Part shown: in pieces, positions 455 to 49,904 of the stretch
Layout of the letters: each line of letters starts with the position of its first letter
Numbering within the stretch: the stretch's first letter is position 1
NCBI GenBank assembly: GCA_963719035.1
Contig: CAVRAO010000002.1
Coordinates: 228,144-292,143, forward strand
DNA from: Methanobacteriota archaeon
Lineage (GTDB): Archaea; Halobacteriota; Bog-38; Methanoflorentales; Methanoflorentaceae
Length of the DNA: 64,000 nucleotides
Reading direction: 5' to 3'
Translations under genes and position numbers: made by a program
Notes under the pieces: model-generated
Told to the model about the DNA's origin: nothing
What the model saw: only the letters and a program-made list of their open reading frames with translations
Databases searched by the model: none

Positions 455-2284
455 TCAAGCCGTTTTGATAGCGTCGAATTCGCAGATCTGCTCACACACA
501 CCGCAGCCAATACAGTCTTCCGAAATGTGGGCGCACGAGTCACTATAGCTGATCGATGGGCAAAAGAGCGTGCCACAAAGCATACAACTCGCAAAGTAGT
601 TCTTGCACGTTGAAGTAACTCGTTTTTTCGTCTTTGAAAGCGCCCCTGCTTTTTTGGCGCTAATTAAGCATGCGCGCCTTGCGATGACAACTTGTACGCC
701 GTCGCCGTCCTTAGCTTTGACGAATGCTTCTTCGGTTTCAGATAAGTTGTAGGGATCGACAACGTAGAGCCCCTGAACGCCAACGGCTTTAATGAGGTCT
801 TCCATAGGAGTCTGGAAGTTGCATGTTCCCGTTGCGGTCTCACCAGTGCACGGGTGGGGCTGATGGCCCGTCATTGCAGTTGTATTATTATCCAAAATGA
901 TAAGCGTCATTTTCGCTCCGTTATAAACGGCGTTAATCAATCCCGGAACGCCTGTGTGCACAAAGGTAGAGTCACCGATAACGCTCACTATTTCCCTATC
1001 CTCTCCGCAAGCAGCTGCAAATCCGCTGCCCATGCTGACGCTTGCGCCCATGCAAAGCGTGGTATCTATCGTCCCCTGACTCACGCCTAGGGTGTAACAT
1101 CCGATATCTCCCACATAGATTGCGGACTTCTTGAAAACTTTCTTCAACGAATAAAACGTTGCGCGATGAGGACATCCCGCACAGAGTATAGGCGGCCGAG
1201 AGGGGAGCGAATGCTCTACAGCGATTAATTCAACTGGAATGTTTGTTGTTACGAAACGGTCGATCGCCTGACCTAACCCCTTTAACACCAAGTCTACCGT
1301 GAGTTCACCTTCTCGAGGCACGTGTCCGGTGAGCTTCCCAAGCACCTCAACCGTGCCCGCTAGTGCGTTGACTTTCTCTTCAATTACGGGTTCGAGTTCT
1401 TCGATGACCAAAATCTTACGTGAGTTATTGATTAGTGCCACAATGGCGTCGTTATTCATAGGATAGGCGGCGATTCGCAATATGGAAGGCTCTAGCTGTA
1501 GTCTCATTACCGCCTCCTCAACATATTTTGCGGCCACGCCTGAGGTTACAACGCCAAGCTCAGACTTCTTAAGCTTAAGTCTGCTCAAGGAAGCGAGCTC
1601 AGAACGGAGAAGCGGTTGGAGTTTGTTCAGCTCTACATGCCGGAGGCGCGCATGAGCTGGTACCATGACCCATCTTTCGGGTTTTTTTTCGAAGCGTGCC
1701 AGCCGCTGGTCGCTGTGTTGACCGCTTAATATGACAGACGCTCGTGCATGCGAAACGCGGGTTGTCGGACGGAGTATGACTGGGATTTCGAATTGTTCAG
1801 ACAACTTGAATGCGTATTTTGTAAACTCATATGCTTCTTGCGGTGTTGATGGATCAAGGCATGGGATTTTTGCAAAGTACGCATATCTGCGCGAATCTTG
1901 CTCATTTTGAGAGGAATAACAGCCTGGATCATCGGCAACGACAAGCACAAGTCCGCCCTTGACACCGGTATACGCAAGCGTCATGAGCGGGTCGGCTGCC
2001 ACATTGAGGCCGACGTGTTTCATTATGACCGCCGCCCGTACGTTACAGTACGAAGCGCCGGCTGCGACTTCGAGAGCTACTTTCTCGTTGACTGACCACT
2101 CGACGTGTGGTGGCTTTTTATAACGCTCGACATTTCGAGCTATGAAAGGAATGATCTCAGATGAAGGCGTTCCCGGATAACCAGATACGACTGAAACACC
2201 AGCCTCCAATAAGCCGTGCGCGATTGCTTCGTTTCCTAAGAGGTACTTGCGACTACTTTGCTGCATGAGTTGTTGTCGATCCAA
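455..2284 (-). CDS. iorA: Indolepyruvate:ferredoxin oxidoreductase alpha subunit (TPP-binding, C-terminal 2x[4Fe-4S])
   Basis: 609 aa with a TPP-enzyme signature, a C-terminal CxxCxxCxxxC ferredoxin motif, and the adjacent iorB. Confidence 0.8.
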   Translation of the reverse strand: MDRQQLMQQSSRKYLLGNEAIAHGLLEAGVSVVSGYPGTPSSEIIPFIARNVERYKKPPHVEWSVNEKVALEVAAGASYCNVRAAVIMKHVGLNVAADPLMTLAYTGVKGGLVLVVADDPGCYSSQNEQDSRRYAYFAKIPCLDPSTPQEAYEFTKYAFKLSEQFEIPVILRPTTRVSHARASVILSGQHSDQRLARFEKKPERWVMVPAHARLRHVELNKLQPLLRSELASLSRLKLKKSELGVVTSGVAAKYVEEAVMRLQLEPSILRIAAYPMNNDAIVALINNSRKILVIEELEPVIEEKVNALAGTVEVLGKLTGHVPREGELTVDLVLKGLGQAIDRFVTTNIPVELIAVEHSLPSRPPILCAGCPHRATFYSLKKVFKKSAIYVGDIGCYTLGVSQGTIDTTLCMGASVSMGSGFAAACGEDREIVSVIGDSTFVHTGVPGLINAVYNGAKMTLIILDNNTTAMTGHQPHPCTGETATGTCNFQTPMEDLIKAVGVQGLYVVDPYNLSETEEAFVKAKDGDGVQVVIARRACLISAKKAGALSKTKKRVTSTCKNYFASCMLCGTLFCPSISYSDSCAHISEDCIGCGVCEQICEFDAIKTA

Positions 2285-4773: not shown

Positions 4774-6150
4774 ATGCACGCTGCGATTATCTGCTCAGAA
4801 ATAGACGCCGCCTCGCAAAACGTAGCGCGTCATCTTCTTAAGCGTGTTCCCTGGGCGAGATGTTCAGAAGAACCTGTTCATTGGACGTATGGAAACTTTC
4901 AGTTGCTGGTAACTAAAGGTAGACTCATCAAACAAGAAGCGCTAGATCGAGAGCTTAATGCAGACTTACTCATATTTGCGTCTAGGCACCAGAGCGAGAA
5001 ACGGAAAGGACCTGTATTTACAGCACACTTTACTGGTAACATTGAAGGCCCTCAACAGGTGGTCCCTACCTTAGCGCGCGCTGCTCCTCGTGCATTGAAA
5101 CTTGTGGTAGAAAGGCTCAAACGATTGTCTAGCATTGAAGTCCTAGTCGAGGTAACCCACCACTGTCCTTGCACTATTAACACGCCGTCGCTCTTCGTGG
5201 AGATTGGTAGTTCAAAATCTGAGTGGATAGATGAAGCCCTTGGCGATACTATGGCACAGGCTATTCTCTCGCTAGACTCACCATTACTGAACTCCCAGTG
5301 CGTGACAGCTGTCGGGTTCGGGGGACCGCACTACGCCCTGCGCCACACTGAGGTTCTGCTCGGTAGCGACATTTGTTATGGGCATATTTTTGCTACATAT
5401 CAACTTGAACGGTTATCGCCAGCAATCGTCCAAGAGGCATTCGAGAAATCACCGGCACAATTCGCGTACTTTGACCGAAAACAGATGGGTGCAGAAAGGG
5501 ATCGTTTGCTGTCTATTTTGCATAACTTGGGTTATGAAGTGCTTAGAAAGAGCGACATTGAGGACCATGGAAACGTTTCGTGGGAGCAATATCTCCGAAT
5601 CAGGCGCGCATTGAGATTAAACGGTGTAGTTTTGGATGGAACGCGTATACACGTAAGCGCGTCATTGCAAGACTCCCTCGACGATCCTACCCTGTCAATG
5701 ACCTACTTTGAGTTCAAACGGCTTGATTTAAACCCCGCAATAATCAAACTGGCTCACGCTGTCGATCGTGAATCCTTTAAGCACTTGATTGAAATCGAAA
5801 AAATAGTATACCTGGAACGTAAAGACGGTAACATTCTCGCTATCTTCGTTCCGGCCGAATTCAACTTGCGAGATGTAACAAGCGCCCTGCTACTAGGATG
5901 TATAGAAATACTAAAAAAGCGGTACGAGGTAGAATATTCTCAGCGAAAATCAAAACTATATATATCCGAACGCAAATTTAACGCACGATTAGCACGATCG
6001 CTTGGCGTGGCTGATGGGCCACTATTTGCGAAACTAGCGCACGGAGAGCCGATCAGAATAAATAGCAAGGTAATTAAACCCGAGGATGTATTTACGAAGG
6101 TTAAAAAGGCATTTGATGTCGCTACTGCTGACAAACTCGGTCAACATTAA
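4774..6150 (+). CDS. dtdA: Archaeal-type D-aminoacyl-tRNA deacylase (DtdA)-like N-terminal domain, with a C-terminal extension of about 200 aa of unknown function
   Basis: The N-terminus (IICSEIDAASQNVARHLL...) resembles the archaeal DTD family. Residues ~260-458 have no family I recognise. Confidence 0.45.
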   Translation: MHAAIICSEIDAASQNVARHLLKRVPWARCSEEPVHWTYGNFQLLVTKGRLIKQEALDRELNADLLIFASRHQSEKRKGPVFTAHFTGNIEGPQQVVPTLARAAPRALKLVVERLKRLSSIEVLVEVTHHCPCTINTPSLFVEIGSSKSEWIDEALGDTMAQAILSLDSPLLNSQCVTAVGFGGPHYALRHTEVLLGSDICYGHIFATYQLERLSPAIVQEAFEKSPAQFAYFDRKQMGAERDRLLSILHNLGYEVLRKSDIEDHGNVSWEQYLRIRRALRLNGVVLDGTRIHVSASLQDSLDDPTLSMTYFEFKRLDLNPAIIKLAHAVDRESFKHLIEIEKIVYLERKDGNILAIFVPAEFNLRDVTSALLLGCIEILKKRYEVEYSQRKSKLYISERKFNARLARSLGVADGPLFAKLAHGEPIRINSKVIKPEDVFTKVKKAFDVATADKLGQH

Positions 6151-6156
6151 CATGTC

Positions 6157-7293
6157 TTGAAAACTAAATGTGGAGGATACGACATGAAGTCCATAATTGA
6201 AGACGCGCTTGCACGCGGCGCAAGCGACGAAAAAAGCGAATCACCGCAACGGTCCTATACCGTTGACCAAGAGCTCGAAGAAGTGCTCAAAACGCTACAA
6301 ACAAACATTATCGTTGTTGGATGTGGTGGTGCTGGATCTAATACTATAACGCGAATGATGGAAGAGGGGATAGAAGGAGCTGAACTAATTGCACTCAACA
6401 CGGACGCTCAGCACCTAAGGGGCACGATAGCCGATCGGAAAATCCTGATAGGAAAAGAGCGCACGCGCGGTCTCGGCGCTGGTTCACTTCCTCAAATAGG
6501 GGAAGAAGCCGCTCTCGAAAGTCAAGAGGAACTGCGCGCGAGCGTTGCCGGGGCGGACATGGTGTTTATTACCGCCGGGTTAGGCGGTGGAACGGGCACT
6601 GGTGCTGCGCCTGTCGTCGCAGAAGCGGCACGAGACGCCGGGGCTCTTACAATCGCTATCGTTACACTCCCGTTTAGCGTAGAGGGTATGGTGAGAAGAG
6701 CGAATGCCGAAGCAGGGCTCGAACGGCTTCGTGATATGGCAGATACGGTTATCGTCGTGCCAAACGACCGACTGTTAGAAGTGGTGCCTCGATTGCCACT
6801 ACAAGCTGCGTTTAAGGTGTCGGACGAAGTATTGATGCGAGCCGTTAAAGGTATAACCGAGCTTATCACTAAACCTGGGCTCATTAACCTTGATTTTGCT
6901 GATGTCAGAACCGTTATGCAAAGAGGTGGCGTAGCAATGATCGGGCTTGGCGAGTCTGATGCCGAGGACAAAGCCGTAGATTCAGTGAAGAAAGCCCTGA
7001 GAAGTCCACTATTGGACGTCGATATCTCAGGTGCTACTGCTGCCATAGTCAATGTCATAGGAGGCACAGATATGACCGTGACTGAAGCAGAAGGGGTCGT
7101 GCAAGAAGTTTATGAGCGTATCGATCCCGACGCGCGCATCATTTGGGGCGCACAGATCGATCCCGAGCTGGACCACATGGTGCGGACGTTGCTTATCGTC
7201 ACAGGGGTTAAATCACCTCAGATCTACGGTAAAAGTGAATCACTCAAGATAAAAACTGGGGCTGAAAGGTATGGGATAGACTTCGTCAAATAA
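6157..7293 (+). CDS. ftsZ: Cell division GTPase FtsZ
   Basis: GGGTGTG tubulin signature and NTDAQ motif. The start may be the internal Met at 6184. Confidence 0.9.
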
Positions 7294-7418
7294 GGACCCC
7301 AGCAGTAATCCTCCACAAAAAAATTTATACTATCGAGACGCAAAGTGATACCAAGCGTCGCCGCGGGCGCTGATATTCACTTTGCGCATTTTTGCTGCAC
7401 TAGTTTGGTGAATGTACG

Positions 7419-7880
7419 ATGGTTAAAAAACAGGGGACTTCTTCGTCCAAATCTAATAAACAACGAGAGCCCACCAAAGAAGAAAAAAAACGGGATGGTG
7501 GTGCGTCTAAGCCTTCGAAACCGCAAGAGGCCCAAAAAGAAGGTCGTTTCTCTCGAAAGGCGATCGAACGTAAGCTTGGTGAGTATCGAAGGATCTTAAC
7601 GTTGACAAGAAGGCCAACGCGCGAGGAGTTCTCTACGATTGCAAAGGTTGCTGCATTAGGGATTATCATAATCGGAGTGGCTGGTTTTCTGATATACTTA
7701 GCTATGGTACAAGTACCTGAGAGCTTAGGCGCGAACAATACGACGCAAGCGACGACAAGCTCTTCAACAAGCAACGAACAGGCTGTCATTCAGCAAATAA
7801 CCAACGCGACGGCTGAAATTAACAATGCCTCAGCAGCGAATAATGCGGGGACTGTGACTACGCAGTCAGTAGCTAGTTAG
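7419..7880 (+). CDS. secE: Preprotein translocase SecE (Sec61-gamma) with a Lys-rich N-terminal extension and an Asn/Thr/Ser/Ala-rich C-terminal extension
   Basis: Single TM helix IAKVAALGIIIIGVAGFLIYLAMV preceded by the KLGEYRRIL motif, in the conserved position upstream of spt5-L11. Confidence 0.7.
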   Translation: MVKKQGTSSSKSNKQREPTKEEKKRDGGASKPSKPQEAQKEGRFSRKAIERKLGEYRRILTLTRRPTREEFSTIAKVAALGIIIIGVAGFLIYLAMVQVPESLGANNTTQATTSSSTSNEQAVIQQITNATAEINNASAANNAGTVTTQSVAS

Positions 7881-7886
7881 TATCGA

Positions 7887-8378
7887 ATGGAGAGGAAGAT
7901 GTCTAGTCAGGAGCAAGATGAACTCGAATCTTCAATATACGCCATAAAGACTACGGCGAATCAAGAACGGGCAGTAGCTAACCTACTTGCACTCGCTGCT
8001 AAGAAGGAGAATTATGATATTCGGGCGATACTCGTCCCAAAAGAGCTTAAAGGGTATGTGCTCATCGAGACCAACGCGTTTGAAACGGTAGAGCAGGCAA
8101 TTCAAGGTATACCGCACGCACGCGGCGTGGTAAAGGGGAGTACTAAATTTGCAGAAATCGAACATTTCTTAACACCAAAGCCGGCGGTAGCGGGCATCGA
8201 AGATGGAGACATCATTGAGCTCATTGCTGGGCCTTTCAAAGGAGAAAGAGCCCGCGTAAAGCGAATTGACGAGCGCCGTGAAGAGATCACGGTAGAGCTT
8301 TTCGAAGCTATGGTGCCAATACCTATTACCGTACGCGGTGATAACGTGCGAGTGTTGAGCAAGGAGGAGCGTGAATAA
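7887..8378 (+). CDS. spt5: Transcription elongation factor Spt5 (NusG homologue)
   Basis: NGN and KOW domains, between secE and rpl11. The start may be a few codons downstream. Confidence 0.8.
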
Positions 8379-8379
8379 T

Positions 8380-8856
8380 ATGGTCGACGTAATCGAGATC
8401 TTGGTCCCTGGAGGCAAAGCGAGTCCCGGTCCACCGATAGGACCTGCTTTAGGACCACTCGGAATCAACATCAAGGCGGTCGTTGACGAAATAAACGAAA
8501 AAACTGCGTCATATAATGGCATGCAAGTGCCGGTGAAGGTCACTGTCGACGATAAAAAGAATGTGACGCTCGAAATAGGTATACCTCCAGCATCAGCTCT
8601 TATTCTTATAGAAGCAGGCATAGAGAAAGGATCGTCTGGCGAAGACACGGTGGGCAATATCAGCGTCGCCCAAGCAATTAAGATCGCAAAGCTGAAACAG
8701 TCGAACTCACTTTCGTACGAGCTTAAAAACACCGTTAAAGAAATCTTAGGGACTTGCGTGTCGATGGGCGTCACTGTTGATGAAAAGCCTGCAAAGGATA
8801 TTCAACATGCTGTAGACGCTGGTGAATACGCAGATCTGTTTGCTGAGGATTCTTAG
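8380..8856 (+). CDS. rpl11: 50S ribosomal protein L11
   Basis: GGKASPGPPIGPALGPLGIN is a signature. The track ORF starts at GTG 8371, and an ATG at 8380 is more likely. Confidence 0.9.
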   Translation: MVDVIEILVPGGKASPGPPIGPALGPLGINIKAVVDEINEKTASYNGMQVPVKVTVDDKKNVTLEIGIPPASALILIEAGIEKGSSGEDTVGNISVAQAIKIAKLKQSNSLSYELKNTVKEILGTCVSMGVTVDEKPAKDIQHAVDAGEYADLFAEDS

Positions 8857-8943
8857 ACGGCGAAAGATTGAAGTAAGGTTGCTCCATCTTTAGAATGTAC
8901 CGTAGGAGATCATAAACAAGGTCGACGATACTACGGAGGACAT

Positions 8944-9585
8944 ATGGTCAACGAAAATACCATAAGAGCGGTAAATGACGCCATTGAGTCAGCGCCGAAG
9001 CGGAAGTTCACTGAGAGCGTTGATCTTGTTGTCAATCTAAAGAACATTGATTTAAGCCAGCCGAAGAACCGGATTACAGAGTCGATAGTGCTTCCGAAAG
9101 GACGGGGCAAAGCGACAAAAATCGGCGTTTTTGCTAAGGGTGACCTCGCCATCAAATCACAAAGCGGTGGGGCAGATCTCGTAATTTCTCCTGAAGACAT
9201 TGATAAGATGAGTGGTGACAAGAAACTCATCAGATCAACTACGAGAGATATTGATTTTTTTGTTGCGGAAGCCCCACTGATGCCCTCTATAGGCAAGAGT
9301 TTCGGGCCGATTCTCGGTCCTAAAGGTAAAATGCCCGATCCTATCCCATCTAGTGCCGATCCAACGCCTCTTATAAATAGACTTAAGCGAACCGTAAAGG
9401 TTCGCACGAAAGACAAGCCAACGTTTCACGCCTTAGTCGGAAATCTGAGCATGAGCGTCGAAGACATTGCAGCTAATATTGAAGCACTTCTCAGTACCGT
9501 TGAGTCTAAACTTGACAATGGGACACAGAACATAGCCTCTGTCTATGTAAAGACGACTATGGGGCCTGCAGTGAGGCTGATATAA
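8944..9585 (+). CDS. rpl1: 50S ribosomal protein L1
   Basis: Family similarity and operon context. Confidence 0.9.
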   Translation: MVNENTIRAVNDAIESAPKRKFTESVDLVVNLKNIDLSQPKNRITESIVLPKGRGKATKIGVFAKGDLAIKSQSGGADLVISPEDIDKMSGDKKLIRSTTRDIDFFVAEAPLMPSIGKSFGPILGPKGKMPDPIPSSADPTPLINRLKRTVKVRTKDKPTFHALVGNLSMSVEDIAANIEALLSTVESKLDNGTQNIASVYVKTTMGPAVRLI

Positions 9586-15236: not shown

Positions 15237-16406
15237 TTGCACGTAGGTGAAGCTTTAATTGGCAACGATCCTGAAATGGCCCACGTCGACCTCCTTATAG
15301 GAGACAAGGATGGTCCGGTAGGGCAAGCATTTGCTAGTGGATTATCACACCTTTCTCAGGGGCACACCCCTCTTCTTGCTGTGATTAAGCCAAATTTGTT
15401 AACAAAGCCTGCAACTCTCATCGTGCCTAAGGTCACGCTGCAAGACAGAGAACAGATAGCGAAGGTGTTCGGCCCCGCTCAAGCTGCTGTTGCCAAAGCA
15501 GTCGCGGACTCTGTCGAAGACGGAGTTATCGCAAAGGAAATGTGCGAGCAATACGTACTTATCGTATCAGTCTTTGTTCATCCGGATGCGCAGGACTATG
15601 AAAAAATCTACCGTTATAACTACGGTGCTACGAAATTGGCGATAAAACGGGCATTAACCGACTTTCCTTCGGTGGAAAAAGTTCTCTACGAAAAAGACCG
15701 GTCGCTCCACCCGGTTATGGGATTCAAAGTCTCTCGTCTGTGGGATCCGCCATACCTGCAAGTAGCATTCGATTTGACTGAGTTAGACTTAGTATTGAAC
15801 GTTCTTGATCAACTGCCTATAAGCGATCATATAATTCTTGAAGCAGGAACGCCCCTTATCAAACGTTATGGGCTAGGAATCATCAGAGAAATGCGAAAAG
15901 CTCGATCGAGTGCCTTTATCGTAGCTGACCTTAAAACACTTGATACTGGGAACTTAGAAGCGCGATTGGCCGCGGATGAAGCTGCTGATGCCGTTGTGGT
16001 CTCTGGACTTGCGCCTACATCAACGATTGATAAGGCTATAGAAGAAGCAAACAAGACCGGTATCTATGTTATTATCGATATGTTAAATGTCGACAAGCCA
16101 GAAAGCGTACTCAAGGCGCTGAAGAGCAAACCCGATATCGTAGAACTCCACCGAGCGATCGACGCCGAGGATACGGCGCACGCGTGGGGCAACATCGCTA
16201 CCATAAAGAAATACGCAAAATTAGTCGCTGTAGCAGGAGGGATACGACAAGACAACGTAGAAGATGCTCTGAAGTCGGGAGCGGACATTTTGGTAGTAGG
16301 ACGTGCCATTACAGCAGCACGAGATGTAGAAGGTTCTGCACGGGTGTTTCTAGAAGGATTAAAGCAGAGCGATATCGATCAATACCGGGTTAAAACTGAC
16401 TTTTAG
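15237..16406 (+). CDS. fae-hps: Bifunctional formaldehyde-activating enzyme / 3-hexulose-6-phosphate synthase (Fae-Hps)
   Basis: N-terminal Fae signature ([20 protein letters not shown]) fused to an OMP-decarboxylase-fold Hps domain, 389 aa. Confidence 0.8.
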
Positions 16407-29401: not shown

Positions 29402-29664
29402 TAATCAAAAACGATGTTGAATATATAGCGCGGCTTGCTTGCATTGAGCTTGATGATGAAGACCTCCAAGAGTTTACGATTCAATTAAATACCATACTTG
29501 AATATTTCGAAGAACTTGAAAATGTCGAAGCGGAGCTAACACACGAAGAGGAAGGCAATGTGCTACGCGGTGACAATATCACGCCGAGCTTATCACAGCA
29601 AGAAGCCCTATCTAACGCTCCGCGAGTCGATAGCGGCTATTTTAGGGGCCCCCGTATACTATGA
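29398..29664 (+). CDS. gatC: Asp/Glu-tRNA amidotransferase subunit C
   Basis: 88 aa with GatC-like sequence, and its stop overlaps the gatA start. Confidence 0.75.
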   Translation: MIIKNDVEYIARLACIELDDEDLQEFTIQLNTILEYFEELENVEAELTHEEEGNVLRGDNITPSLSQQEALSNAPRVDSGYFRGPRIL

Positions 29665-31038
29665 GCCATCGAGAACGTATCGAGAGAGCGCTTGAAACAA
29701 TCGAACGCAGTGACCTTAACGCGTTCATTACGGTCGATCATGAAGGTGCGAGGCGGCAAGCTGCAGAAGCTGATGCAGGCAACATAGATGGAAAATTAGC
29801 CGGTCTGGCAGTCGCTATTAAAGACGCCATTTCAACCAAAGGGCTGAGAACCACGTGCGCTTCGAAGATGCTTGAACATTACGTGCCCCCCTACGACGCA
29901 TTTGTTATTCGGAGACTCCGCGCAGAAGGCGCCGTTTTAATTGGCAAGACGAATATGGACGAATTTTCTATGGGCGCATCAACAGAGACGAGCTTCTTCG
30001 GGCCTTGTAAGAACCCTTGGGATATTAACCGCGTGCCAGGCGGCTCATCTGGAGGCAGTGCAGCTTCTGTAGCTGCATACGAAGCAGATCTCGCATTAGG
30101 TTCCGATACAGGAGGATCAATCAGATGTCCTGCGTCTTTTTGCGGCGTAGTAGGGTTGAAACCGACATATGGCAGGGTTTCACGAAGCGGACTTATTTCG
30201 TATGGTAACTCATTAGAACAAATCGGTCCTATCGCACGGACAGTTAAAGGGTGTGCTACGTTGTTTGAGGTTATTGCGGGCCACGATCCCGCAGACAGCA
30301 CCTCGCTCAATCAACCTACGCCTCGCTACTCCAAATCATTATCAAAGGATATCACTGGTTTGAAGATCGGCGTGCCAATCGATTTTTTTGGTGAAGGGGT
30401 CGATCCAACCGTGGAAAACGCCACACGGGATGCAATAGACGTGCTTGTGGATTTAGGAGCGGAGGCACTTGAGGTGTCAATGCCCAGCTTACAATATGCA
30501 CTTTCCGCCTATTACGTCCTAGCGATGTCGGAAGCCTCGTCTAACCTAGCTCGGGTACTGTGGAATCATCTACGGGCACAGAGTTCAAAAAGATCATGAT
30601 TGGCATCGAACATTCTCGGAGAATAGAGCATTTGGATTTGGAAAAGAGGTTAAAAGGCGCGTGCTTCTCGGGACGTACGCGCTCTCGGCGGGATATTACG
30701 ACAAATATTACCTGAAGGCGCTCAAAGCACGTACGCTGATTAGGGCAGACTTTCAGAGAGCTTTTCAACAACATGATGTACTAATCGCACCAACGATGCC
30801 CCACATTGCATTTAAACTTGGAGAGAAAATAGAGGACCCCTTAGCATTGTACAAGGTGGATATTAACACCGTTCCAGTTAATCTTGCGAACGTTCCAGCG
30901 CTTTCCATTCCGTGTGGTGAGAAGGAAAGGTTGCCAATTGGCATGCAAATCATTGGTGATCGACTCAAAGAGACGCTGTTGTTCAACGTTGCGTGGCAAT
31001 TCGAGCACAACACCAAGTTCAATAAATACGCTGAGTGA
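29661..31038 (+). CDS. gatA: Glu/Asp-tRNA amidotransferase subunit A. Frameshifted.
   Basis: The amidase signature is split between ORFs 29661..30599 and 30661..31038. The +1 frame across the gap reads YDGIIYGHR...FGFGKEVKRRVLLGTYALSAGYYD (GatA consensus). There is an extra G in the GGG run at 30553-30555. Confidence 0.75.
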
Positions 31039-31713: not shown

Positions 31714-32971
31714 TCAAAACAGCCACGCAAGAGTTGACAATGGCGTAGAAGTTGTAGGGTGGAGGGGCACTCTTAATTGAGAGAAGATGCCTAAGTACCG
31801 GCGGGCAATTCTATCCCAAGTAATGGATTGAGCGTATTCATACACTTGGCGGCTCATCGCATTTCGAAGCTCATTATCGCTAACTAAAAGGTTAATTTTT
31901 TCAGCAACGTCCTCAGGATAGCCAAACCTCACCAACATGCCTCTGCCTTGTGACAAGACTTCTGCCGCGTGTGTAAACTCCGTAGCTACAATACTCTTTC
32001 CGCAGCCAATTGCTTGAGATAAAACACCGCTTGATATTTGATTGGGATTTGTGTTTGTCACCGCGCATATATCAGTTGCTAAAAAGTGCGCGATCATCTC
32101 TCTATTTGGCAGGTAGCGCTGGACGAATACGACGTTTTTTGCAAGTCCAAGGCTCTTTACGAGGCTGTCAAGCTTGTCCTTGTATCGCTGTCGCACTTTT
32201 TCGTCAAGAGCTGGATGTGGCACTCCAACGACCATGTTACGTTATGTCTTTGTTTGGATTGGCGTCAATAATAGAAGGTAAAGCTTCTATAACGGTCTCT
32301 ATCCCCTTGTCCGGATTAATTAAACCGTAGCTAGCGATCACAAACTTTCCAGACAAGCCTAAACGCTTTTTCGGCAACGTTGTGTCAATAAAAGGCACCG
32401 CTGGTACCCCGTGCGGGATGAGCGTGAGCTTTTTTTTGTCTAAGCCATAAGTATTGTTTAAAAGTTCAATTCCAGCATATGCCGATGTGACGACCGCATC
32501 TGACAACGCGTAAATGTCTTTCACGACGTCCCTCATTCCAAGCGGTGGATTGGGCAAGATCGTGTGCAGCGTAGTGACTATAGGCTTTCTTACTCGGCGC
32601 ATGAATTCCAAAATGTAGCTGCCAAAGTCGCCTTTATAAAGCCCAAACTCGTGCTGAATATTTATAACGTCAATTTTGGAGCTGTTTATCTTATCAGCAG
32701 CGGCTATGTAACTTTTGACGTCACAATCTTTGATGACGTTAAACGTTTTTGAGATGAAACGCTTGCTAAGCACAAATTCTTTTTTGCTTAGTTGCGCCAC
32801 CTGTTCTCGTAGAGAAGCGTTACTCAAAAAAAGATTCTTGCACTCTTGAACAACGTTGACATTCCAAGTAATATTATCTGCAACATTCGAGATGCTTGCA
32901 GTAAGATCGTTTGTGAAAGTCGCGATACCGCATTCCCGAGGGGGAAACGAACTTACAAAGTTCAAACTCAA
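31714..32971 (-). CDS. Glycosyltransferase family 4. Frameshifted, with an inserted base creating TAA.
   Basis: ORF 32237..32971 is the GT4 N-domain (SFPPRECGIATFTNDL) and ORF 31714..32235 is the GT4 C-domain. A TAA and one extra nt separate them at 32236-32239. Confidence 0.65.
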
Positions 32972-37678: not shown

Positions 37679-40346
37679 CTATGTTCGTTTGACAATAATT
37701 GTCCCTTCGCTTAGCTTAATAACGTCGACGACCATTCCCTCCACAAACAGCTCTTTTTTAACAATGAAATCCGTCGGCAAAAACTCATGACCGTTAATCC
37801 TGACCGATCCCGTTCCGATTTGATCCGCGATTTCCTCAACAGGAACGCTTTTTATTAACTCTGCTACACGCATTGCTTCAGACTTAAAACGCGGACCTAA
37901 CGAACCAAGATTTGGACTAATTTCAGATATATGCTCGAGAATATCTGGTTTGCCTGTCCTATATTCAATATCGGCATTGAGCGTATTATTAATATCTGGC
38001 GCTCCGGTAGACATATCGCGATCTAAATACACATAAAGCCCTTCAATTCGAGCGTTCAGTGCGATGCGTTGCTCAGATTTGTATCGCCTAACACTGGCAA
38101 TAATTTCTTTAACTAGCTCTCCTGTGCGACGGGCTTCCTGGACGTCTTTTTGAGACGCTGCTATGGCTATTTGCTGAACATCCCCTGTGGTGGTTGTCGA
38201 TTCGGTAGAAGTCACGCCGAGTGGTTTTAGGCAAAGAACAGGCCACGAGTGTAAATGAACACTTTCATCGCCGGGGTTTATGTGCGAAAACAACTCCTCC
38301 GAAAAGAATGGACAAAATGGTGCTAGCAGCTTGGCAATCGTATTAAGCGCGAGGTGTAAAGCAGCGAGGCTGTACGCGTCCCGTTCATAGAGCCTTCCTT
38401 TAACCGCTTCGATATAATGGTCAGCTAATATATTCCAAACGAAAGATCGAATTTCTTTAAGGGCCTCGTCAAAGGCAAACCGGTCCATACTGGAGGTGAC
38501 AGAGTCAACCAGCTCAATAAGATTACACATTAACCATATCTCACTTGGATTTTGAGATCTATAAATGACTGGCTGGACTCCTTGAGTGAAATGTAACATG
38601 GCAAATCTAAAGATATTCCAAAGCTTGGTTAAAAATCTTGAAGAGGCTTTCAAGTCTTTTGTGTTATATGGAACGTCAGATCCAACTGAGCCCCCTATTG
38701 CTGCCCATTGCCGAAGCGCGTCCGTGCCATATTGCTCAATAACGCTTTCAGGAGCGACGATATTACCAAGCGACTTGCTCATCTTCTGGTTGTCTTTACC
38801 GAGTACCATCCCATTGACTAAAACGCTTTCCCAGGGCTTGCTCCCCACGAGAGCGTCTGATCGTAGTATTGTATAAAACGCCCATGTCCTAATGATGTCG
38901 TGACCTTGTGGCCGCAATTGAGTGGGAAACTGTCGCTCGTACTGAGCGTTAGGCCAACCTGCTGCATTTAGAGCAGAGAGCGATGAGTCCATCCATGTGT
39001 CTAATACGTCGTATTCAGGTGTAAAACTCGATGACCCGCATTCACAAACACGGGCAGGAGCTTCTTGAGTGGGATCCAAAGGCAACCAACTTTCTTCAGC
39101 AACCACGACCGTATCACATCCGTCACAGTACCAAACTGGAATAGGTGTAGCGAAAATCCGTTGGCGAGAGATACACCAGTCCCACTCGACGCTTTCAGTC
39201 CAATTCTTCAAGCGATGCAATGAGTACCGACGGGATCCACTCAATCTCTGATGCTCGAGCGAGTATTGTATCCTTATTAATCTTTACAAACCACTGGCTC
39301 TCAGAAAGGATCTCAATCGGGGTTTTACATCGATCGTGAAATCCCACATTCTGCTCAATGCGTTCCTGTTTTTGTAAGAGCTTACCGTTAAAAAGATCTC
39401 CGATAATGCGCTCTTTTGCCTCGCCAATGGTTAGGCCGCTGTATCGTGTATCAGTCATGCGGCCATCTTTTCCAATCACTTTTTTAAGTCGCAGATTGTG
39501 CTTTTTCCACCAGCGCACGTCTTGCTTGTCGCCAAATGTGCAGATCATCACTACGCCAGTGCCAAACGTGGGATCAACCGCTTCGTCGCCAATTATGGCG
39601 ACCTCCTCATCATAAAGGGGCGTTCGTACTGTCCCGCCAATTAAACGGACATAGCGTTCATCACTGGGGTTAACTGCAACAGCAACGCAAGCACCTAAAA
39701 GTTCGGGACGCGTTGTAGCTATTTCGACTGATCCTAAGTCGCTGCTTTCAAAAAAAAGATGATGAAGAATGGTCGACCGTGAGTCATAATCTACTTCAGC
39801 AAATGCGATAGCCGTCTCACAGCGTGGGCACCAGTTTACGGGGTGCTCATCTTTGTAAATGAGGTCGTTATTATACATTTGCACGAACGATTTCTGCGTC
39901 TTAGCGTAGTAGGCCTTATCCATAGTCACAAACTCTTGCGACCAATCTATGGAAAAAGCAAGACGCTGCATCGTTCCCTTCATCAACGCAATGTTTTCTC
40001 GAGTCAAGCTTTCGCACAGCCCTCTGAATTCTGCACGTGGGATCTGGTTTTTCGTTACATTGTAGGTTGTTTCGACCTTTACCTCAGTCGGAAGCCCGTG
40101 ACAGTCCCATCCTTGCGGAAATTTAACGTCACAGCCCTTCATACGCTTATAGCGCGCGATGAAGTCTATATAACACCAATTAAGGGCGTTTCCAAGGTGA
40201 AAATTACCAGTTGGATATGGCGGCGGCGTATCGATTATAAAGCGCTCTTTTATTTCCCCGCCGCGATAACGATACATGTCCGAGTCCCAAGCGGTCAGCC
40301 ATTTTGACTCAATGTATTCATAATCAAAGTTCTTTGGTATAGCCAT
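37679..40346 (-). CDS. valS: Class-I aminoacyl-tRNA synthetase, most likely valyl-tRNA synthetase. Frameshifted.
   Basis: ORF 39195..40346 carries the HLGN (HIGH-type) N-terminus and ORF 37679..39244 carries WDWCISRQR and KMSKS. The join ...EIEWIPS/YSLHRLKNW needs one G removed near 39226-39234. The total is about 890 aa. Confidence 0.7.
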
Positions 40347-42137: not shown

Positions 42138-43061
42138 ATGCCGAGCATGAGATCAATGGGACATAACGCAGAGGTAATAGGATTCGGAGCGCTGAATTGC
42201 GATAAGATATACCGGGTAGAGGACTTAGCACCTCCTGGAAGAGAGACTGGTATCATTTCCGCTACAAGGCAGCCAGGGGGCTCTGCGGCGAATACAATTG
42301 TAGGATTGACTCGCTTAGGGATCAAAACAGGGTTTATTGGCACCGTAGGAAACGACAGAGAAGGCTCACTTTTATTAGATGACTTGAAGCGGGAAGGTGT
42401 CAATCTGCAGGGTATCATAAAAGTAGATGGAGATACTGGTGCCGCATTGATATTCATAGACTCGTGCGGTGAAAGAGCTATCTATATCCTTCCAAGTGTC
42501 AATGACACGTTCATAACAGCGAATCATGATTACGCAAAAAACGCCAAAATACTGCACGTTAGTTCTTTTACGGGAATCGACCAACTCAGAATGCAAATCT
42601 CATATGTTAAACAACTTCAGGGGAAACGAACGAAAATTTCATTTAGCCCTGGCAACATGTATGTGAAGCTTGGACTAAATGAGCTTAAACCACTAATTGA
42701 GCGATCATTCTTGCTGTTCCTGAACAGAGAAGAGGCGAAAACATTAACCGGATCGCCTGACGTTGAAGATGTGGCATCTCTCCTTGACCTAGGTACAAAG
42801 ATTGTTGCTGTCACACTTGGAGATCTAGGATCGCACGTTGTAACGCACAGTAAAAGCTTTTATTTGCCCCCCTTCAAATCGAAAATAAATGACACTGTAG
42901 GGGCAGGTGACGCGTTTGCTGCGGGTTTTTTGTACGGACAGTTAACCGGCAAGGACCTTCGAGAGTCAGGTCTTTACGGCAACTTCATGGCTTCTAAATC
43001 GATCGGTGAGCTTGGGGGCAGAAAAGGGCTCTTGAGAGATCTGAAAGGACTTAGTAACTGA
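42138..43061 (+). CDS. PfkB-family carbohydrate kinase
   Basis: GAGDAFAAGFLYG signature. Confidence 0.7.
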   Translation: MPSMRSMGHNAEVIGFGALNCDKIYRVEDLAPPGRETGIISATRQPGGSAANTIVGLTRLGIKTGFIGTVGNDREGSLLLDDLKREGVNLQGIIKVDGDTGAALIFIDSCGERAIYILPSVNDTFITANHDYAKNAKILHVSSFTGIDQLRMQISYVKQLQGKRTKISFSPGNMYVKLGLNELKPLIERSFLLFLNREEAKTLTGSPDVEDVASLLDLGTKIVAVTLGDLGSHVVTHSKSFYLPPFKSKINDTVGAGDAFAAGFLYGQLTGKDLRESGLYGNFMASKSIGELGGRKGLLRDLKGLSN

Positions 43062-44729: not shown

Positions 44730-45092
44730 TTGCCATCAGAAAATTTAAAAGACTTGATGCCTTCAGATCCAAAAACAACAACAGAGCTTAGAAAGACGCT
44801 GAGCGGAATTACTGAGCTATGTGCTTTGCTAGAAAGCACGTTAGACCGATCTCTGACTGAACCCTATATCGACGCAAATCAGTTCATCTCAAAGTACAAC
44901 CATTTTCGTAACAACCTGTTTTTACTGCAGCCAGATGATGTCATAGAGGAGATGCTGACTGAGATGCCCACGTACGTCTACACTGGCGACGATGCAGCCG
45001 ATGTAGTAAATGTCAAACAACTTCTAGTTGAGGTATACCTCAAAAATTCGCAACTTATGGCGTATCTTCAAAATCTGCTTGAACTTGGTTGA
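44730..45092 (+). CDS. Hypothetical protein
   Basis: 120 aa ORF with no family I recognise. Confidence 0.3.
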   Translation: MPSENLKDLMPSDPKTTTELRKTLSGITELCALLESTLDRSLTEPYIDANQFISKYNHFRNNLFLLQPDDVIEEMLTEMPTYVYTGDDAADVVNVKQLLVEVYLKNSQLMAYLQNLLELG

Positions 45093-45318: not shown

Positions 45319-45531
45319 ATGCCAAAAGAACACCTCTGTGTCACCGTAGAGCTGAAAGGACAGGCACAAGAAGTGAATTTGCCTTTGGGTTCAGACTACG
45401 AGCGATTGCTAAGTGAACTCAAATTAAATTCTGAAGAGGTTCTTGTTTTTGTAGAGAATGAGGCAGTCCCCTTCGACGCTCCCGTGCAACCAGGGATTGT
45501 ACGTGTGTTAAAAGTCGTTTCCGGCGGTTAA
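45319..45531 (+). CDS. ThiS/MoaD/SAMP-like ubiquitin-fold sulfur-carrier protein with a C-terminal GG
   Basis: 70 aa with a beta-grasp pattern, ending ...VLKVVSGG. Confidence 0.6.
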   Translation: MPKEHLCVTVELKGQAQEVNLPLGSDYERLLSELKLNSEEVLVFVENEAVPFDAPVQPGIVRVLKVVSGG

Positions 45532-45561
45532 ACAAGAAGATTGATTTAACACTTACTAACC

Positions 45562-46467
45562 CTATTCTTGCAGTATCTTGTCTAACTTGACTGATTCATC
45601 GGATTGCGAGAAAAAAGGTAGAGCAGCGATCGCACCAATAATGCCGCGCCCTTCTAGGCAAACCTTCACACCAGCAGCGTGAGCTGCCTCGGTAGCCGCA
45701 GAAATAGACACCTCGCCTGAGCGGGTCGCGTTACCGAAATTCAAAAGGCGTTCTGCACTGAACGATTTTAAGACAGCCATTCCCGTCTTATCTGATAGCG
45801 AGAGCTCCTCCAAGAGTTTTTTGAATTTTTTGATAGGTTTGTCGTCGTTCAAACCCGCAAACTCGACGACAGTTGCCACGCAGTTTTTCGTCTTCGCCTT
45901 GACAGGGTAAAGTTGCACAATAGCGTGAGAAACGTAGCGAAGCGATTCGTTATCTACCATTGTGGCTATGTTGTTCACTAGTGACCACGTTGCACCTTCT
46001 TGTTTGGTGTCTGTGTCATCCACCCCTATAATAATGCGAGACCTTTTTGGCAATGTAAGCGTCCCGCGACTTAACTTGCTGCCTCCTGCTGGCGTGAGAT
46101 CGTAATCGATGACGTCGCGAGCAAGCGCTCTACACATTGTAGCGCCGACGCCACCACCCCCTAAGCCAGCGTACGTCACCTTTATGGTGTCTTTTGACAC
46201 AGTAACAGACTCAATCCCGCCAGCAGATACAGACGCTCTGAGTTTAAGATGAGACGTCCCCTCTTTGATGAGATAGCGAGTCGTGTTTCCCAAAGCGCGA
46301 CTTGTGACGATCAGTGGACTTGCTTGAGCATAGTGATACCGGGCCCACGCAGCACCGCCATAACAGTTCGTTGTTTCGATAAGCTCAATACAACCCGTTC
46401 CTGAGATAGCTAAGATGTCTCTGTAAGGCACTATCCAAGGAAGATGTCTGAACTCAGGCGTGGCCAT
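45562..46467 (-). CDS. Conserved hypothetical protein with a Gly-rich nucleotide-binding-like loop, distal gene of the ycaO-tfuA operon
   Basis: 301 aa. It has a GLGGGGVGATMCRALAR loop and an IIIGVDDTDT motif, and its start overlaps the upstream gene. Confidence 0.35.
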   Translation of the reverse strand: MATPEFRHLPWIVPYRDILAISGTGCIELIETTNCYGGAAWARYHYAQASPLIVTSRALGNTTRYLIKEGTSHLKLRASVSAGGIESVTVSKDTIKVTYAGLGGGGVGATMCRALARDVIDYDLTPAGGSKLSRGTLTLPKRSRIIIGVDDTDTKQEGATWSLVNNIATMVDNESLRYVSHAIVQLYPVKAKTKNCVATVVEFAGLNDDKPIKKFKKLLEELSLSDKTGMAVLKSFSAERLLNFGNATRSGEVSISAATEAAHAAGVKVCLEGRGIIGAIAALPFFSQSDESVKLDKILQE

Positions 46468-46478
46468 CAGTCGTCACC

Positions 46479-47018
46479 TTAATCCTCTTTTGCACGGAAA
46501 CGATTTATAGCTGTTCTAATCGAATCAGCTACTGTTATGCTCGCTCTTCGCGCCACGGGACTCAAGCCGTCCCCAAAATCACAATTAGCCGGTTGAATGC
46601 CGATGAGAAAAATGTTGCAGTTCATTTCCGTTTGGAGGTATTCGCCGAGCGCTAATAGAGAAGCCTTGTGTGTTGAGACCGATGAACCTTTAAGGTCGTT
46701 GAGCTGAAAGATGTGTGCATCGCCAGGCAAAGCGCCGAAATCTGCTGCATCTACAAGCACAACACAAGTTGGTTTTACTCGTTTGAGGTACCCCGTAAAG
46801 TTTTCAGGAGCGTTTTGACAGTTAAGCACAACGACCGAAGGGTCATCAAAACTCGAGCTGAGTCTATCAACAACAGCAAGTCCTACTGCGTCATCACGTC
46901 TTAATTCATTTCCAATTCCCAAGATCGCGATTTTTGAACAGGCATATCCCGCAAAGAGGCGATAAACGTTTAACTCGAATTCATCCATCATGGCTGCACC
47001 GAATGCTGTCGGTCGCAA
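46479..47018 (-). CDS. HycI-like (hydrogenase maturation protease family) endopeptidase
   Basis: ILGIGNELRRDDAVGLAVVDRL ... VVLVDAADFGALPGD. It overlaps the tfuA 3' end. Confidence 0.55.
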   Translation of the reverse strand: MRPTAFGAAMMDEFELNVYRLFAGYACSKIAILGIGNELRRDDAVGLAVVDRLSSSFDDPSVVVLNCQNAPENFTGYLKRVKPTCVVLVDAADFGALPGDAHIFQLNDLKGSSVSTHKASLLALGEYLQTEMNCNIFLIGIQPANCDFGDGLSPVARRASITVADSIRTAINRFRAKED

Positions 47019-47668
47019 AACCTCACGACTTCTTGAACCACGAGCTTCGCATCTCGTTTCTTAAGGTCGTAGTCATGACTAGCAAGAAACGTTTTGATCT
47101 TAGTACGATCACCGCTATCTATCTGTCCCCTCAACTCAGCTGTCTTTAAAACTAATGGAAAGCTTCGTTCCATATAAAAGAAGCTCTTTGCGAGGTTAAG
47201 CAAAGCGTTGCTCATGTCTCTGTCCACAATTGAAGCGTCTAAGAGTGAGTGTAAGGCAACGCGTATATTGATGAGCGGTTCGGATACAGGCTCGTAAGTG
47301 ATTGGGTTGTACGCCACGGCAACTTCATCATCTGCTTCAATAACTCCCTCTTTAAAACACGTATAGATCTTCCCGACTCCAATCATCCCGAAACTGTCGA
47401 GTTCAGAGGCGCGCAACGCCCCCATGCTTGATCCACCAACAACAGTCACGCCCGACTTAATTGCACCTATTATTTCTCGATGTGAAACCGCAGCACGATT
47501 AAAAAAAACGCCGTCAATCAATCCGATGATCGATATGCCCGTTTTAGCCGCTTTCAAGATATCTCCTCGTACGGCGGGGGGGCAGCATCTTATCCTTTGA
47601 TCAGCGGAAGACACTTCAGACCAAGACAAACTTGGACCTGTAAATATTACGCAGTCACATTTCGCCAT
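46988..47668 (-). CDS. tfuA: TfuA-like protein
   Basis: 226 aa of TfuA family, overlapping the ycaO stop. Confidence 0.7.
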   Translation of the reverse strand: MAKCDCVIFTGPSLSWSEVSSADQRIRCCPPAVRGDILKAAKTGISIIGLIDGVFFNRAAVSHREIIGAIKSGVTVVGGSSMGALRASELDSFGMIGVGKIYTCFKEGVIEADDEVAVAYNPITYEPVSEPLINIRVALHSLLDASIVDRDMSNALLNLAKSFFYMERSFPLVLKTAELRGQIDSGDRTKIKTFLASHDYDLKKRDAKLVVQEVVRFCDRQHSVQP

Positions 47669-48864
47669 TCTTTGTAGCGCGTTCCTTTTCGTTCCCGATC
47701 CAAGAAATAGACCTCAAAGCCTGGTATAGTTGCACGAACTACGGGAACACGAATAGCGCTTACTGTTATATCAGAGATAATAACGCTGTTTGCCACATTT
47801 TGCAAGCGCTCGAGGACGATTCTGATGTCACTGTCGATAGATGTAGTTGCCATAGCTTCAAGTTCGTCGAGCTCGATCATCTCGCGTGGTTTTTCTAACC
47901 AATGCTTATTGAGCCTTTTCATCCTCTCATACCCAATCATTCGGGCTACCGATTCCCGATTGGTGTCTTCACGAGCGCCGTGAATCTGTGTAGCTCGCGA
48001 CTGCGCCACTTCAGTCAGTGCTCTAAGCGCGGCAATTTCGGGATCGGTATGACTTCCGGCCCCCATAACCAATAAAGAAGCATCACGCATTTTTTCGTCA
48101 TCTGATGCTGCCACAATAGTTGGAACGCCAGTATCAGTGCGGAGCGACCACAGCCGAACGACAACGCCTTGCTGCTCAAACTTGTCGATTATTTCGCTAA
48201 CTCGACCTGCACCTACGTTGAGACCTAAACCGGGGTTGCGGTTTATCTCTGCAATGCTTACTGCGTCTCTCTCAATTACCTCCATCAGGCCATGAAAGAT
48301 CGCCTCTTCCATTACGTTGCCTGATGCAAGACCATTTGTATTGCTTCTAAAGAGCTGCCAATTACCTCGCACTGGCGAATAAGGATGAAAAACGGCGTTT
48401 GCCGGAACAATTACCTCTTCATCGTTAAGAAGGTCCCACCCTGGGTACCACTCAATTTTTGTATCGGTAGAAAGGTAGCCCGGCAATATGAGATCAGTGG
48501 GATTAACGGCGCGATTTTCTCCACTAAGGTGCGCGTATGAATCGAACAATAATTGCTCCTTGAGATTTCCAACTTCAGCAGAGAACCGTTCGACAGCCTC
48601 CATTATCACCGAAACGCGGGCTTCCGTTTCACTTGTGCCCTTGCCAGCATACACAGAAATAGCACCGTCTGCTGCCGACGGCCTTATAGCAGAAAATACG
48701 GGCAACCCTATGCGATCTAGCCCGGAAATATCTGCTATCCGTGTTATCCCAACCTCTGGTACGGCTGCCTGAACACGTTCTAGTGTCTCTGCTGGCGGTA
48801 TCACCCTGTGCGTATCAATGCAATACGTCTTTGGTGCAGTGTGCAGTTCAATCTTGCTTGTCAT
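47647..48864 (-). CDS. ycaO: YcaO-domain protein (methanogenesis marker 1; McrA glycine thioamidation)
   Basis: 405 aa YcaO ATP-binding domain immediately followed by tfuA. Confidence 0.75.
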   Translation of the reverse strand: MTSKIELHTAPKTYCIDTHRVIPPAETLERVQAAVPEVGITRIADISGLDRIGLPVFSAIRPSAADGAISVYAGKGTSETEARVSVIMEAVERFSAEVGNLKEQLLFDSYAHLSGENRAVNPTDLILPGYLSTDTKIEWYPGWDLLNDEEVIVPANAVFHPYSPVRGNWQLFRSNTNGLASGNVMEEAIFHGLMEVIERDAVSIAEINRNPGLGLNVGAGRVSEIIDKFEQQGVVVRLWSLRTDTGVPTIVAASDDEKMRDASLLVMGAGSHTDPEIAALRALTEVAQSRATQIHGAREDTNRESVARMIGYERMKRLNKHWLEKPREMIELDELEAMATTSIDSDIRIVLERLQNVANSVIISDITVSAIRVPVVRATIPGFEVYFLDRERKGTRYKEWRNVTA

Positions 48865-49077: not shown

Positions 49078-49422
49078 TTAGTCGCTTTCATCAAGGTTAT
49101 CTGTGAATTTTCCCGTGTTTTGTAGAATATTATACCAGCGACGAGAGATCGAATACGCAAAATCTTCAAACACAATGTAGTTTATCTCCTTAAGAATCGC
49201 TCCCTCTGCGATAGTTACAAACGTATAGTCAAAATCTGAAGATTCAATTTTAAAAATGTCGCCTACAGATCCCTTTATCTCGTGCGGCTTCTCTCCATTA
49301 TCTTGCGTCACAAGAGCCCAGTTAGGGCCAAATCGCGGATGAATTCCTAATAGTTGCCAAACGTTACTCGAACCTTCAATCAAAAAGCTCAGTTCTGCTT
49401 TGAGACTCAGTATTGTATCCAC
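49078..49422 (-). CDS. Hypothetical protein
   Basis: 114 aa. Confidence 0.3.
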   Translation of the reverse strand: MDTILSLKAELSFLIEGSSNVWQLLGIHPRFGPNWALVTQDNGEKPHEIKGSVGDIFKIESSDFDYTFVTIAEGAILKEINYIVFEDFAYSISRRWYNILQNTGKFTDNLDESD

Positions 49423-49640: not shown

Positions 49641-49904
49641 ATGGCTCAAGACGCAGAAAAAGACACCGAAGGTCAAAACGAGGACGTTTACGAGCTCGTA
49701 TTACCTCCTGGTATTCCAAGTAAGGTTATAATTGCAGCGTGCAAAGAATTTAACACTGACGTTGTGTCAGCTTATGCAGACGTTGAAACTGGCCTAACTG
49801 ACGTGACTTCTCGAGATTTACTCGCTTTTAGGGCAGACAAGGAGACAATAGAAAAGATCCGTGAATTCGTAATTGAAGAGACGAGAAAGTTTATTGACGA
49901 GTGA
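49641..49904 (+). CDS. Hypothetical protein
   Basis: 87 aa. Confidence 0.3.
   Translation: MAQDAEKDTEGQNEDVYELVLPPGIPSKVIIAACKEFNTDVVSAYADVETGLTDVTSRDLLAFRADKETIEKIREFVIEETRKFIDE

Follow-up and report, generated by a model that had tools for sequence, protein, structure and literature searches.

In the stretch of 64,000 nucleotides analyzed here (the window: positions 228,144 to 292,143 of contig CAVRAO010000002.1, assembly GCA_963719035.1, from a Methanobacteriota archaeon of the Bog-38 lineage), the ycaO-tfuA pair, which installs thioglycine in McrA of methyl-coenzyme M reductase (MCR), closely precedes genes for a HycI-family endopeptidase and for methanogenesis marker protein 11 (Mmp11), and a gene for a small ubiquitin-fold sulfur carrier converges on the end of this row. 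A first-pass annotation of the DNA had proposed that the carrier, the protease and Mmp11, the last seen as an ATP-binding protein, form a dedicated module that extends the thioamidation system. Is this arrangement a conserved functional unit, or the gene order of one lineage? Our analysis argues against the module, as no linkage was found in the loci surveyed outside the lineage of the window, while within that lineage the surroundings are wholly collinear. We consider it probable that this is an ordinary ycaO-tfuA locus for McrA thioamidation, with three functionally independent genes adjacent to it in one hydrogenotrophic lineage.

The layout of five genes first described for this locus is confirmed (Table 1), and the identities initially assigned to ycaO, tfuA, the HycI-like protease and a GG-terminated carrier of the ThiS/MoaD/SAMP type are borne out by their family scores. 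The ycaO, tfuA, hycI and mmp11 genes run head-to-tail on the minus strand and are tightly packed: the reading frames of ycaO and tfuA have 22 nt in common in the window, the stop codon of tfuA overlaps the ATG of the protease gene in the sequence ATGA (4 nt), and 11 nt separate the stop of hycI from the start of mmp11, whose ATG is preceded by GGTGA. The stops of mmp11 (45562) and of the carrier gene (45531) are convergent, with 30 nt between them. A terminator-like hairpin with a T-run at 49077-49063 lies directly upstream of ycaO, so that ycaO is probably the first gene of a transcription unit; the four minus-strand genes of the window are, to judge from their spacing, probably co-transcribed. 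No Rfam family and no tRNA was found between positions 43000 and 51000, and the annotated open reading frames (ORFs) of the window include neither a hydrogenase gene nor an E1/ThiF gene.

The YcaO of the window belongs to the methanogenesis-marker-1 clade, above the TIGR03266 cutoff, and its match to the Pfam YcaO family covers the whole profile (1.5e-89). The TfuA encoded immediately downstream is of the McrA-associated clade, passing the NF033432 cutoff, and matches the Pfam TfuA family at 1.7e-44. Installation of thioglycine by ycaO-tfuA was reported by Nayak et al. (2017; PMC5589413), with MA0165/MA0164 as the pair of M. acetivorans. The window resembles that system in that both of its proteins pass the equivalog models and the two frames overlap, and differs from it in having hycI and mmp11 next on the same strand. 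The locus is predicted to install the thioglycine of McrA as an ordinary ycaO-tfuA pair. By the mechanism given in the literature, YcaO would phosphorylate, at the expense of ATP, the amide oxygen in the backbone of the McrA target glycine, and TfuA would hydrolyze the thiocarboxylate of a ThiS-type protein, providing the sulfide from which thioglycine is formed.

Gene order within and outside the Bog-38 lineage

Comparative loci were collected in a scan anchored on Mmp11, which covered one genome per archaeal or bacterial species and found 340 relatives; the best 80 loci, each with 10 kb of sequence on either side, were retained, and their six-frame ORFs were searched with sixteen proteins of the window. 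The closest relatives of all five proteins come from metagenome-assembled genomes (MAGs) of peat, bog and fen, bog_38 included. The GTDB group Bog-38 has been equated in published work with Candidatus Methanoflorens, described as a hydrogenotrophic methanogen. In loci L001-L022, which belong to MAGs of peat bog and fen and encode an Mmp11 at 70-94% identity, the ycaO-tfuA-hycI-mmp11 row and the convergent carrier gene are retained, and among the surveyed loci the five-gene layout recurs only in this lineage.

The picture outside the lineage is uniform. Loci L023-L080 (n = 58) represent Methanocellaceae, Methanosarcinaceae, Methanotrichaceae, Methanoperedens and further Methanosarcinales, with Mmp11 at 48-61% identity, and homologs of YcaO, TfuA and HycI were found within 10 kb of mmp11 in none of the 58. 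An exhaustive search of representative sequences added four more distant Mmp11 loci, again with YcaO, TfuA and HycI in the vicinity of none (0/4). Across independent lineages, then, neither of the extra operon genes shows conserved linkage to ycaO-tfuA: it is missing from all 58 + 4 mmp11 loci, and the HycI homologs outside the lineage stand in hydrogenase operons.

Conservation inside the lineage has to be read together with that of the surrounding genes. Loci L001-L022 also share the order of the genes for MtrH, a cyclase, DUF2098, small ORFs, AP-endonuclease 2, Alba, PfkB, PyrK and FAH, and about 20 housekeeping genes around the locus are collinear in the same way. Since unrelated housekeeping genes are equally conserved around it, the five-gene layout carries no specific signal. 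The rest of the window is of the same housekeeping character, comprising the mtr operon, the cyclase, DUF2098, AP-endonuclease 2, Alba, PfkB and a class-I tRNA synthetase, together with ribosomal proteins, FtsZ, enzymes of purine synthesis and glycosyltransferases.

The individual junctions were compared across the lineage. The spacing from ycaO to tfuA takes one of two values, -22 or -4 nt, in all loci with intact copies of the two genes, that from hycI to mmp11 is mostly 6-26 nt, and the convergent ends of mmp11 and the carrier gene lie 27-272 nt apart. From tfuA to hycI, close relatives have a spacing of -11 to +14 nt, loci L016-L020 one of 94-241 nt and L015 one of 1304 nt; in L015, a 1.3-kb insertion separates the two genes and hycI and mmp11 are still adjacent; this junction is therefore loose even inside the lineage (L015-L020). 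The insertion in L015 carries a gene (8594-9499, plus strand) whose HdrB-like product is 301 aa long and has two CCG domains. The best explanation of the tight packing of ycaO, tfuA, hycI and mmp11 is that it is specific to this lineage and does not mark a conserved functional module.

Table 1. Genes at the window's ycaO-tfuA locus, and two mmp11/IorA-like gene pairs from comparative loci (coordinates of the latter are those of the locus named).
Feature	Position	Strand	Product length	Family match (score, cutoff)
ycaO (methanogenesis marker 1)	47647..48864	(-)	405 aa	TIGR03266 (484.5 bits, 365)
tfuA	46988..47668	(-)	226 aa	NF033432 (250.8 bits, 235.2)
hycI-family [NiFe]-hydrogenase maturation endopeptidase	46479..46991	(-)	170 aa	PF01750 (42.6, 23)
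mmp11 (methanogenesis marker protein 11)	45562..46467	(-)	301 aa	TIGR03280 (326 bits, 255.8)
SAMP2-like ubiquitin-fold sulfur carrier	45319..45531	(+)	70 aa	Pfam SAMP2 PF21965 (55.8, 27)
mmp11 + IorA-like pair, L045	9977-10888 and 10902-12443			
mmp11 + IorA-like pair, L088	8001-8903 and 8900-10333			

The SAMP2-like carrier and the sulfur donor

The 70-aa protein encoded on the plus strand has both marks of a sulfur carrier, a beta-grasp fold and a C-terminal Gly-Gly. Its sequence ends in ...VVSGG directly before the stop codon, and its AlphaFold2 model is a beta-grasp (predicted local distance difference test, pLDDT, 85.7), whose best Foldseek matches are TtuB (5gha/5ztb), Mth1743 of Methanothermobacter (1ryj) and ubiquitin or SUMO; the reading of this gene as a convergent beta-grasp gene 30 nt from the operon end is confirmed by these results. 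The protein aligns end to end with SAMP2 of H. volcanii (4hrs/2l32), Gly-Gly included, and it resembles SAMP2 and the Thermus protein TtuB in length (about 66-70 aa), fold, C-terminal GG and end-to-end alignment. It differs from SAMP2 in scoring 53.9 against the NCBIfam SAMP2 equivalog, under the cutoff of 70. TtuB is the sulfur carrier for tRNA 2-thiouridine. A cognate E1 (ThiF/MoeB/UbaA) was not found among the annotated ORFs of the window; its gene presumably lies in another part of the genome.

That the physiological sulfur donor of YcaO thioamidation is unresolved, as the first-pass annotation had it, is out of date. According to a paper published in 2026 by the group of Nayak et al. 2017 (PMC13063428, citing Liu et al. 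2021), sulfide for thioamide-forming YcaO enzymes is delivered from a thiocarboxylated ThiS homolog by the hydrolase TfuA, and this published route already answers the sulfur-donor question in outline. Nor is a ThiS-type gene near ycaO-tfuA new: thiF, sufS, moaD, moaE and moeB were noted near ycaO-tfuA in several methanogens in 2017 (PMC5589413), and the window is like those systems in having a ThiS/MoaD-type gene in the vicinity.

Against this background, the strongest competitor to our reading is that the SAMP2-like protein is the physiological ThiS-type donor for TfuA in McrA thioamidation in this lineage, a role that its place beside the locus would reflect, with hycI and mmp11 as passengers and a mechanism that is already known. 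The carrier, thiocarboxylated by an E1 encoded elsewhere, could feed TfuA: it retains an intact beta-grasp fold and C-terminal GG, TfuA acts on thiocarboxylates of ThiS homologs according to the 2026 paper (PMC13063428), moaD, thiF and similar genes lie near ycaO-tfuA in several methanogens (PMC5589413), and all members of the lineage have the carrier gene less than 1 kb from the operon end. Within the same block, however, the adjacency of Alba or PfkB is conserved at least as well; moreover, the carrier gene is on the opposite strand, two genes stand between it and tfuA, and no E1 was found nearby among the annotated window ORFs. The best matches in sequence and fold, SAMP2 and TtuB, are carriers of tRNA thiolation and protein conjugation, and the protein of the window is just as likely to be a general carrier for tRNA thiolation and sampylation.

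The SAMP2 ortholog of Methanococcoides also speaks against a donor role tied to this locus. A word-based search for homologs of the carrier returned its own lineage only, and the context of the carrier in other orders rests on three Methanococcoides loci within the Mmp11 survey. In Methanococcoides, the SAMP2 ortholog (Pfam 61.7 bits) has as neighbors the unrelated genes for FttA, a HAD hydrolase, DUF2117 and a transporter, away from ycaO-tfuA, and the 20-kb locus contains no ycaO, tfuA or E1. On balance, we regard a role of the carrier as TfuA donor as plausible but on the unlikely side.

The HycI-family protease and Mmp11

The listed ORF of the protease starts at a TTG at 47018 (179 aa). The ATG at 46991, which gives a protein of 170 aa, is the most likely start since the stop codon of tfuA overlaps it, and Joint Genome Institute (JGI) gene calls on relatives agree with this start. 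A profile search places the protein in the normal HycI family: it scores 102.4 bits against TIGR00072 (cutoff 47.45) and its closest solved structure is HycI of T. kodakarensis (5zby, E 4e-22). The motifs GNELRRDD, VDAAD and STH of the window protease align with the metal-site motifs of 5zby and of E. coli HycI (GNxxxxDD, VDA, TH), and the Asp, Asp and His residues of these motifs are presumably the metal ligands, as in HycI and HybD. The protease is thus like HycI of E. coli (2i8l/2e85) and T. kodakarensis in fold family, metal-site motifs and size (about 160-170 aa), and unlike them in having about 15-20 extra N-terminal residues; it also scores slightly under the cutoff of the NCBIfam HycI equivalog TIGR00142 (104.3, cutoff 119.1).

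The nearest homologs of the protease outside its own lineage (40-43% identity) are encoded by the last gene of operons for group-4 membrane-bound [NiFe]-hydrogenases. Family membership, conserved motifs and this context of its relatives point to HycI-type clipping, and the 170-aa protein most likely removes the C-terminal extension of the large subunit of a group-4 energy-converting [NiFe]-hydrogenase encoded elsewhere. The first-pass annotation was right that the gene stands apart from any hydrogenase large subunit, as none is encoded among the annotated window ORFs. This is nonetheless ordinary in a hydrogenotrophic methanogen, since the same has been published for Methanothermobacter, where the hycI homolog MTH737 is encoded away from all hydrogenase operons and each [NiFe] large subunit requires C-terminal clipping (PMC3087415). 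A role as processing protease of the 70-aa carrier was considered and rejected, because the carrier gene already encodes the C-terminal GG and its product needs no processing. The known proteases of ubiquitin-like systems are, moreover, of the JAMM type.

The profile search of the 301-aa protein likewise led to an existing family and not to a new thioamidation component. The TIGR03280 match covers residues 14-294 of Mmp11, and 765 homologs were found, which bear the name marker protein 11 in the NCBI and JGI annotations. The family is small: in a set of 1.84 billion representatives it accounts for 210 clusters at 50% identity. The GLGGGGVG loop noticed in the first reading of the sequence is present at residues 101-108 and is invariant in an alignment of diverse Mmp11 sequences. 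It lies between a strand and a helix in a separate domain formed by the N-terminal 145 residues.

The C-terminal half of Mmp11 resembles the kinase (TCKD) domain of TiaS, the tRNA-Ile2 agmatidine synthetase, as the Pfam TiaS_TCKD family matches residues 146-211 and the GxDDTD and GRGIIGA motifs of the Mmp11 family profile align with their TiaS equivalents. Mmp11 is not itself TiaS: the TCKD domain alone matches, the score against the NF040849 equivalog is 16 bits (cutoff 600), and in comparison with TiaS (3amt, 3u02) Mmp11 is shorter (301 aa versus about 420) and carries its unique GLGGGGVG N-terminal domain where TiaS has its other domains. An E1-like activator was also considered and rejected, as Mmp11 has neither a ThiF domain nor an E1 fold and its top fold matches are to TiaS. 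TiaS phosphorylates a carbonyl oxygen. A literature search found no paper that contains 'methanogenesis marker protein 11', nor one in which TiaS occurs together with 'methanogenesis marker'. In the reading that we favor, Mmp11 would be a methanogen-specific protein with a TiaS-like ATP-using domain that acts independently of YcaO and TfuA.

A different partner for Mmp11 emerges from the other families. Clustering of the neighboring genes revealed a gene for an IorA-like protein of about 500 aa directly downstream of mmp11 and on the same strand in 48 of the 58 loci L023-L080, or 48/55 when loci with less than 1 kb of sequence beyond mmp11 are set aside. The gap between the two genes has a median of 5 nt, many pairs overlap by 4 nt, and independent gene calls reproduce the pair (two examples are given in Table 1). 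The IorA-like protein scores 283-300 bits against TIGR03336, far under the cutoff of 650.9, and has weak TPP_enzyme and POR_N matches. Upstream of mmp11 the neighbors are variable: Methanothrix-like loci have TruD there, and Methanosarcinaceae have RadC.

This synteny suggests that the conserved partner of Mmp11 is the IorA-like thiamine-diphosphate protein and not YcaO/TfuA. In the lineage of the window no copy of the IorA-like partner was found within 10 kb of mmp11. The 609-aa IorA encoded in the window (455..2284) was considered as a partner and set aside: this protein is a canonical IorA, has a ferredoxin domain, shares just 30% identity with the partner family and is encoded 43 kb away. 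The pairing was mentioned nowhere in the literature searched. It is the best available clue to the function of Mmp11; a 2-oxoacid step in coenzyme biosynthesis would be speculation. As a TiaS-kinase-like protein with an IorA-like partner in at least three methanogen families, Mmp11 offers a better and cleaner lead than an extended thioamidation system. Two of the more distant loci differ in their neighbors: in L090 the mmp11 gene (5896-6876) overlaps a downstream radical-SAM gene (6869-7936) instead of an IorA-like gene, and in L091 a NifH/CfbC-like gene converges on mmp11.

Maturation-module readings and further features of the window

The proposal of a full extended system holds that the carrier, the HycI-like protease and Mmp11 together are a dedicated sulfur-delivery or maturation module for YcaO-TfuA, in which, for example, Mmp11 might activate the carrier C-terminus with ATP while the protease processes one of the components. 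The four genes are indeed tightly packed on one strand, hycI and mmp11 stay together even when parted from tfuA (L015), and Mmp11 has a TiaS-like ATP-using domain, with the chemistry of TiaS resembling that of YcaO. These features are outweighed by the absence of the linkage from all 58 + 4 surveyed loci outside one lineage, by the GG terminus of the carrier, for which no protease is required, by the canonical HycI motifs and hydrogenase-linked relatives of the protease, and by the lack of an E1/ThiF domain or fold in Mmp11. To our knowledge Mmp11 is furthermore found in methanogens generally, TfuA-less lineages included, which likewise counts against the module. The existence of some methanogens without TfuA is documented (PMC5589413). 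We therefore consider the extended system very improbable. Were it true, it would give a function to Mmp11, a universal methanogen protein, and add components to the pathway by which the enzyme responsible for most biological methane matures; the negative linkage result, for its part, saves effort on a false lead.

A closely related version is confined to the Methanoflorens lineage, and we give it equally little credence. Here ycaO-tfuA-hycI-mmp11 would be a true maturation operon, Mmp11 would phosphorylate, through its TiaS-like domain, a carbonyl or carboxylate oxygen on an MCR- or carrier-linked substrate, and the SAMP2-like protein would be the dedicated donor. In such an operon, Mmp11 could possibly serve the E1-independent activation of the SAMP2-like C-terminus, or a modification of McrA without a known enzyme. 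Least probable of all is an operon for nickel-enzyme maturation, in which hycI, mmp11 and ycaO-tfuA would be co-regulated for the maturation of methanogenesis enzymes without biochemical interaction: the co-directional tight packing and the proximity of the mtr operon and other methanogenesis genes fit it, but the arrangement is confined to one lineage and the remaining block is housekeeping (Alba, PfkB, tRNA synthetase).

Several points nevertheless weigh against the reading that we prefer, an ordinary ycaO-tfuA locus beside three independent genes. The tight packing makes co-transcription of ycaO, tfuA, hycI and mmp11 likely, and operon partners are often functionally related; Mmp11 may have a role in MCR maturation; and no substrate of HycI was located, the annotated window ORFs containing no hydrogenase. 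The sampling bears on it as well. The examined loci included none identified as Methanomicrobiales, Methanobacteriales or Methanococcales, the four distant Mmp11 loci are metagenome contigs, three of them shorter than 5 kb, and the surroundings of ycaO-tfuA in other orders were seen through the Mmp11, HycI and SAMP2 anchors and PMC5589413 only.

Small ORFs around the locus encode 120 aa (44730-45092, plus strand), 114 aa (49078-49422, minus strand) and 87 aa (49641-49904, plus strand). They match no Pfam family, apart from a weak MJ0093 match on a homolog of the 87-aa ORF, and are kept in most or all loci of the Bog-38 lineage.

Elsewhere in the window, several genes are interrupted. The gene for a class-I aminoacyl-tRNA synthetase (37679-40346, minus strand), whose editing domain is of the Leu type, is split into overlapping ORFs of 383 and 521 aa, while the close relative L081 has a single gene of 888 aa, and the frameshift is probably an assembly error. 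A GatA-like amidase (29661-31038, plus strand) is split so that profile positions 3-307 and 334-444 lie in separate ORFs, and a glycosyltransferase (31714-32971, minus strand) is divided between two adjacent ORFs, one with the GT4 N-terminal half and one with the GT1 C-terminal half. As several essential genes are broken in this way, indel errors in the assembly are suggested. A further gene (15237-16406, plus strand) encodes a fusion of a formaldehyde-activating enzyme (Fae) with an Hps-like protein of the OMPdecase family.

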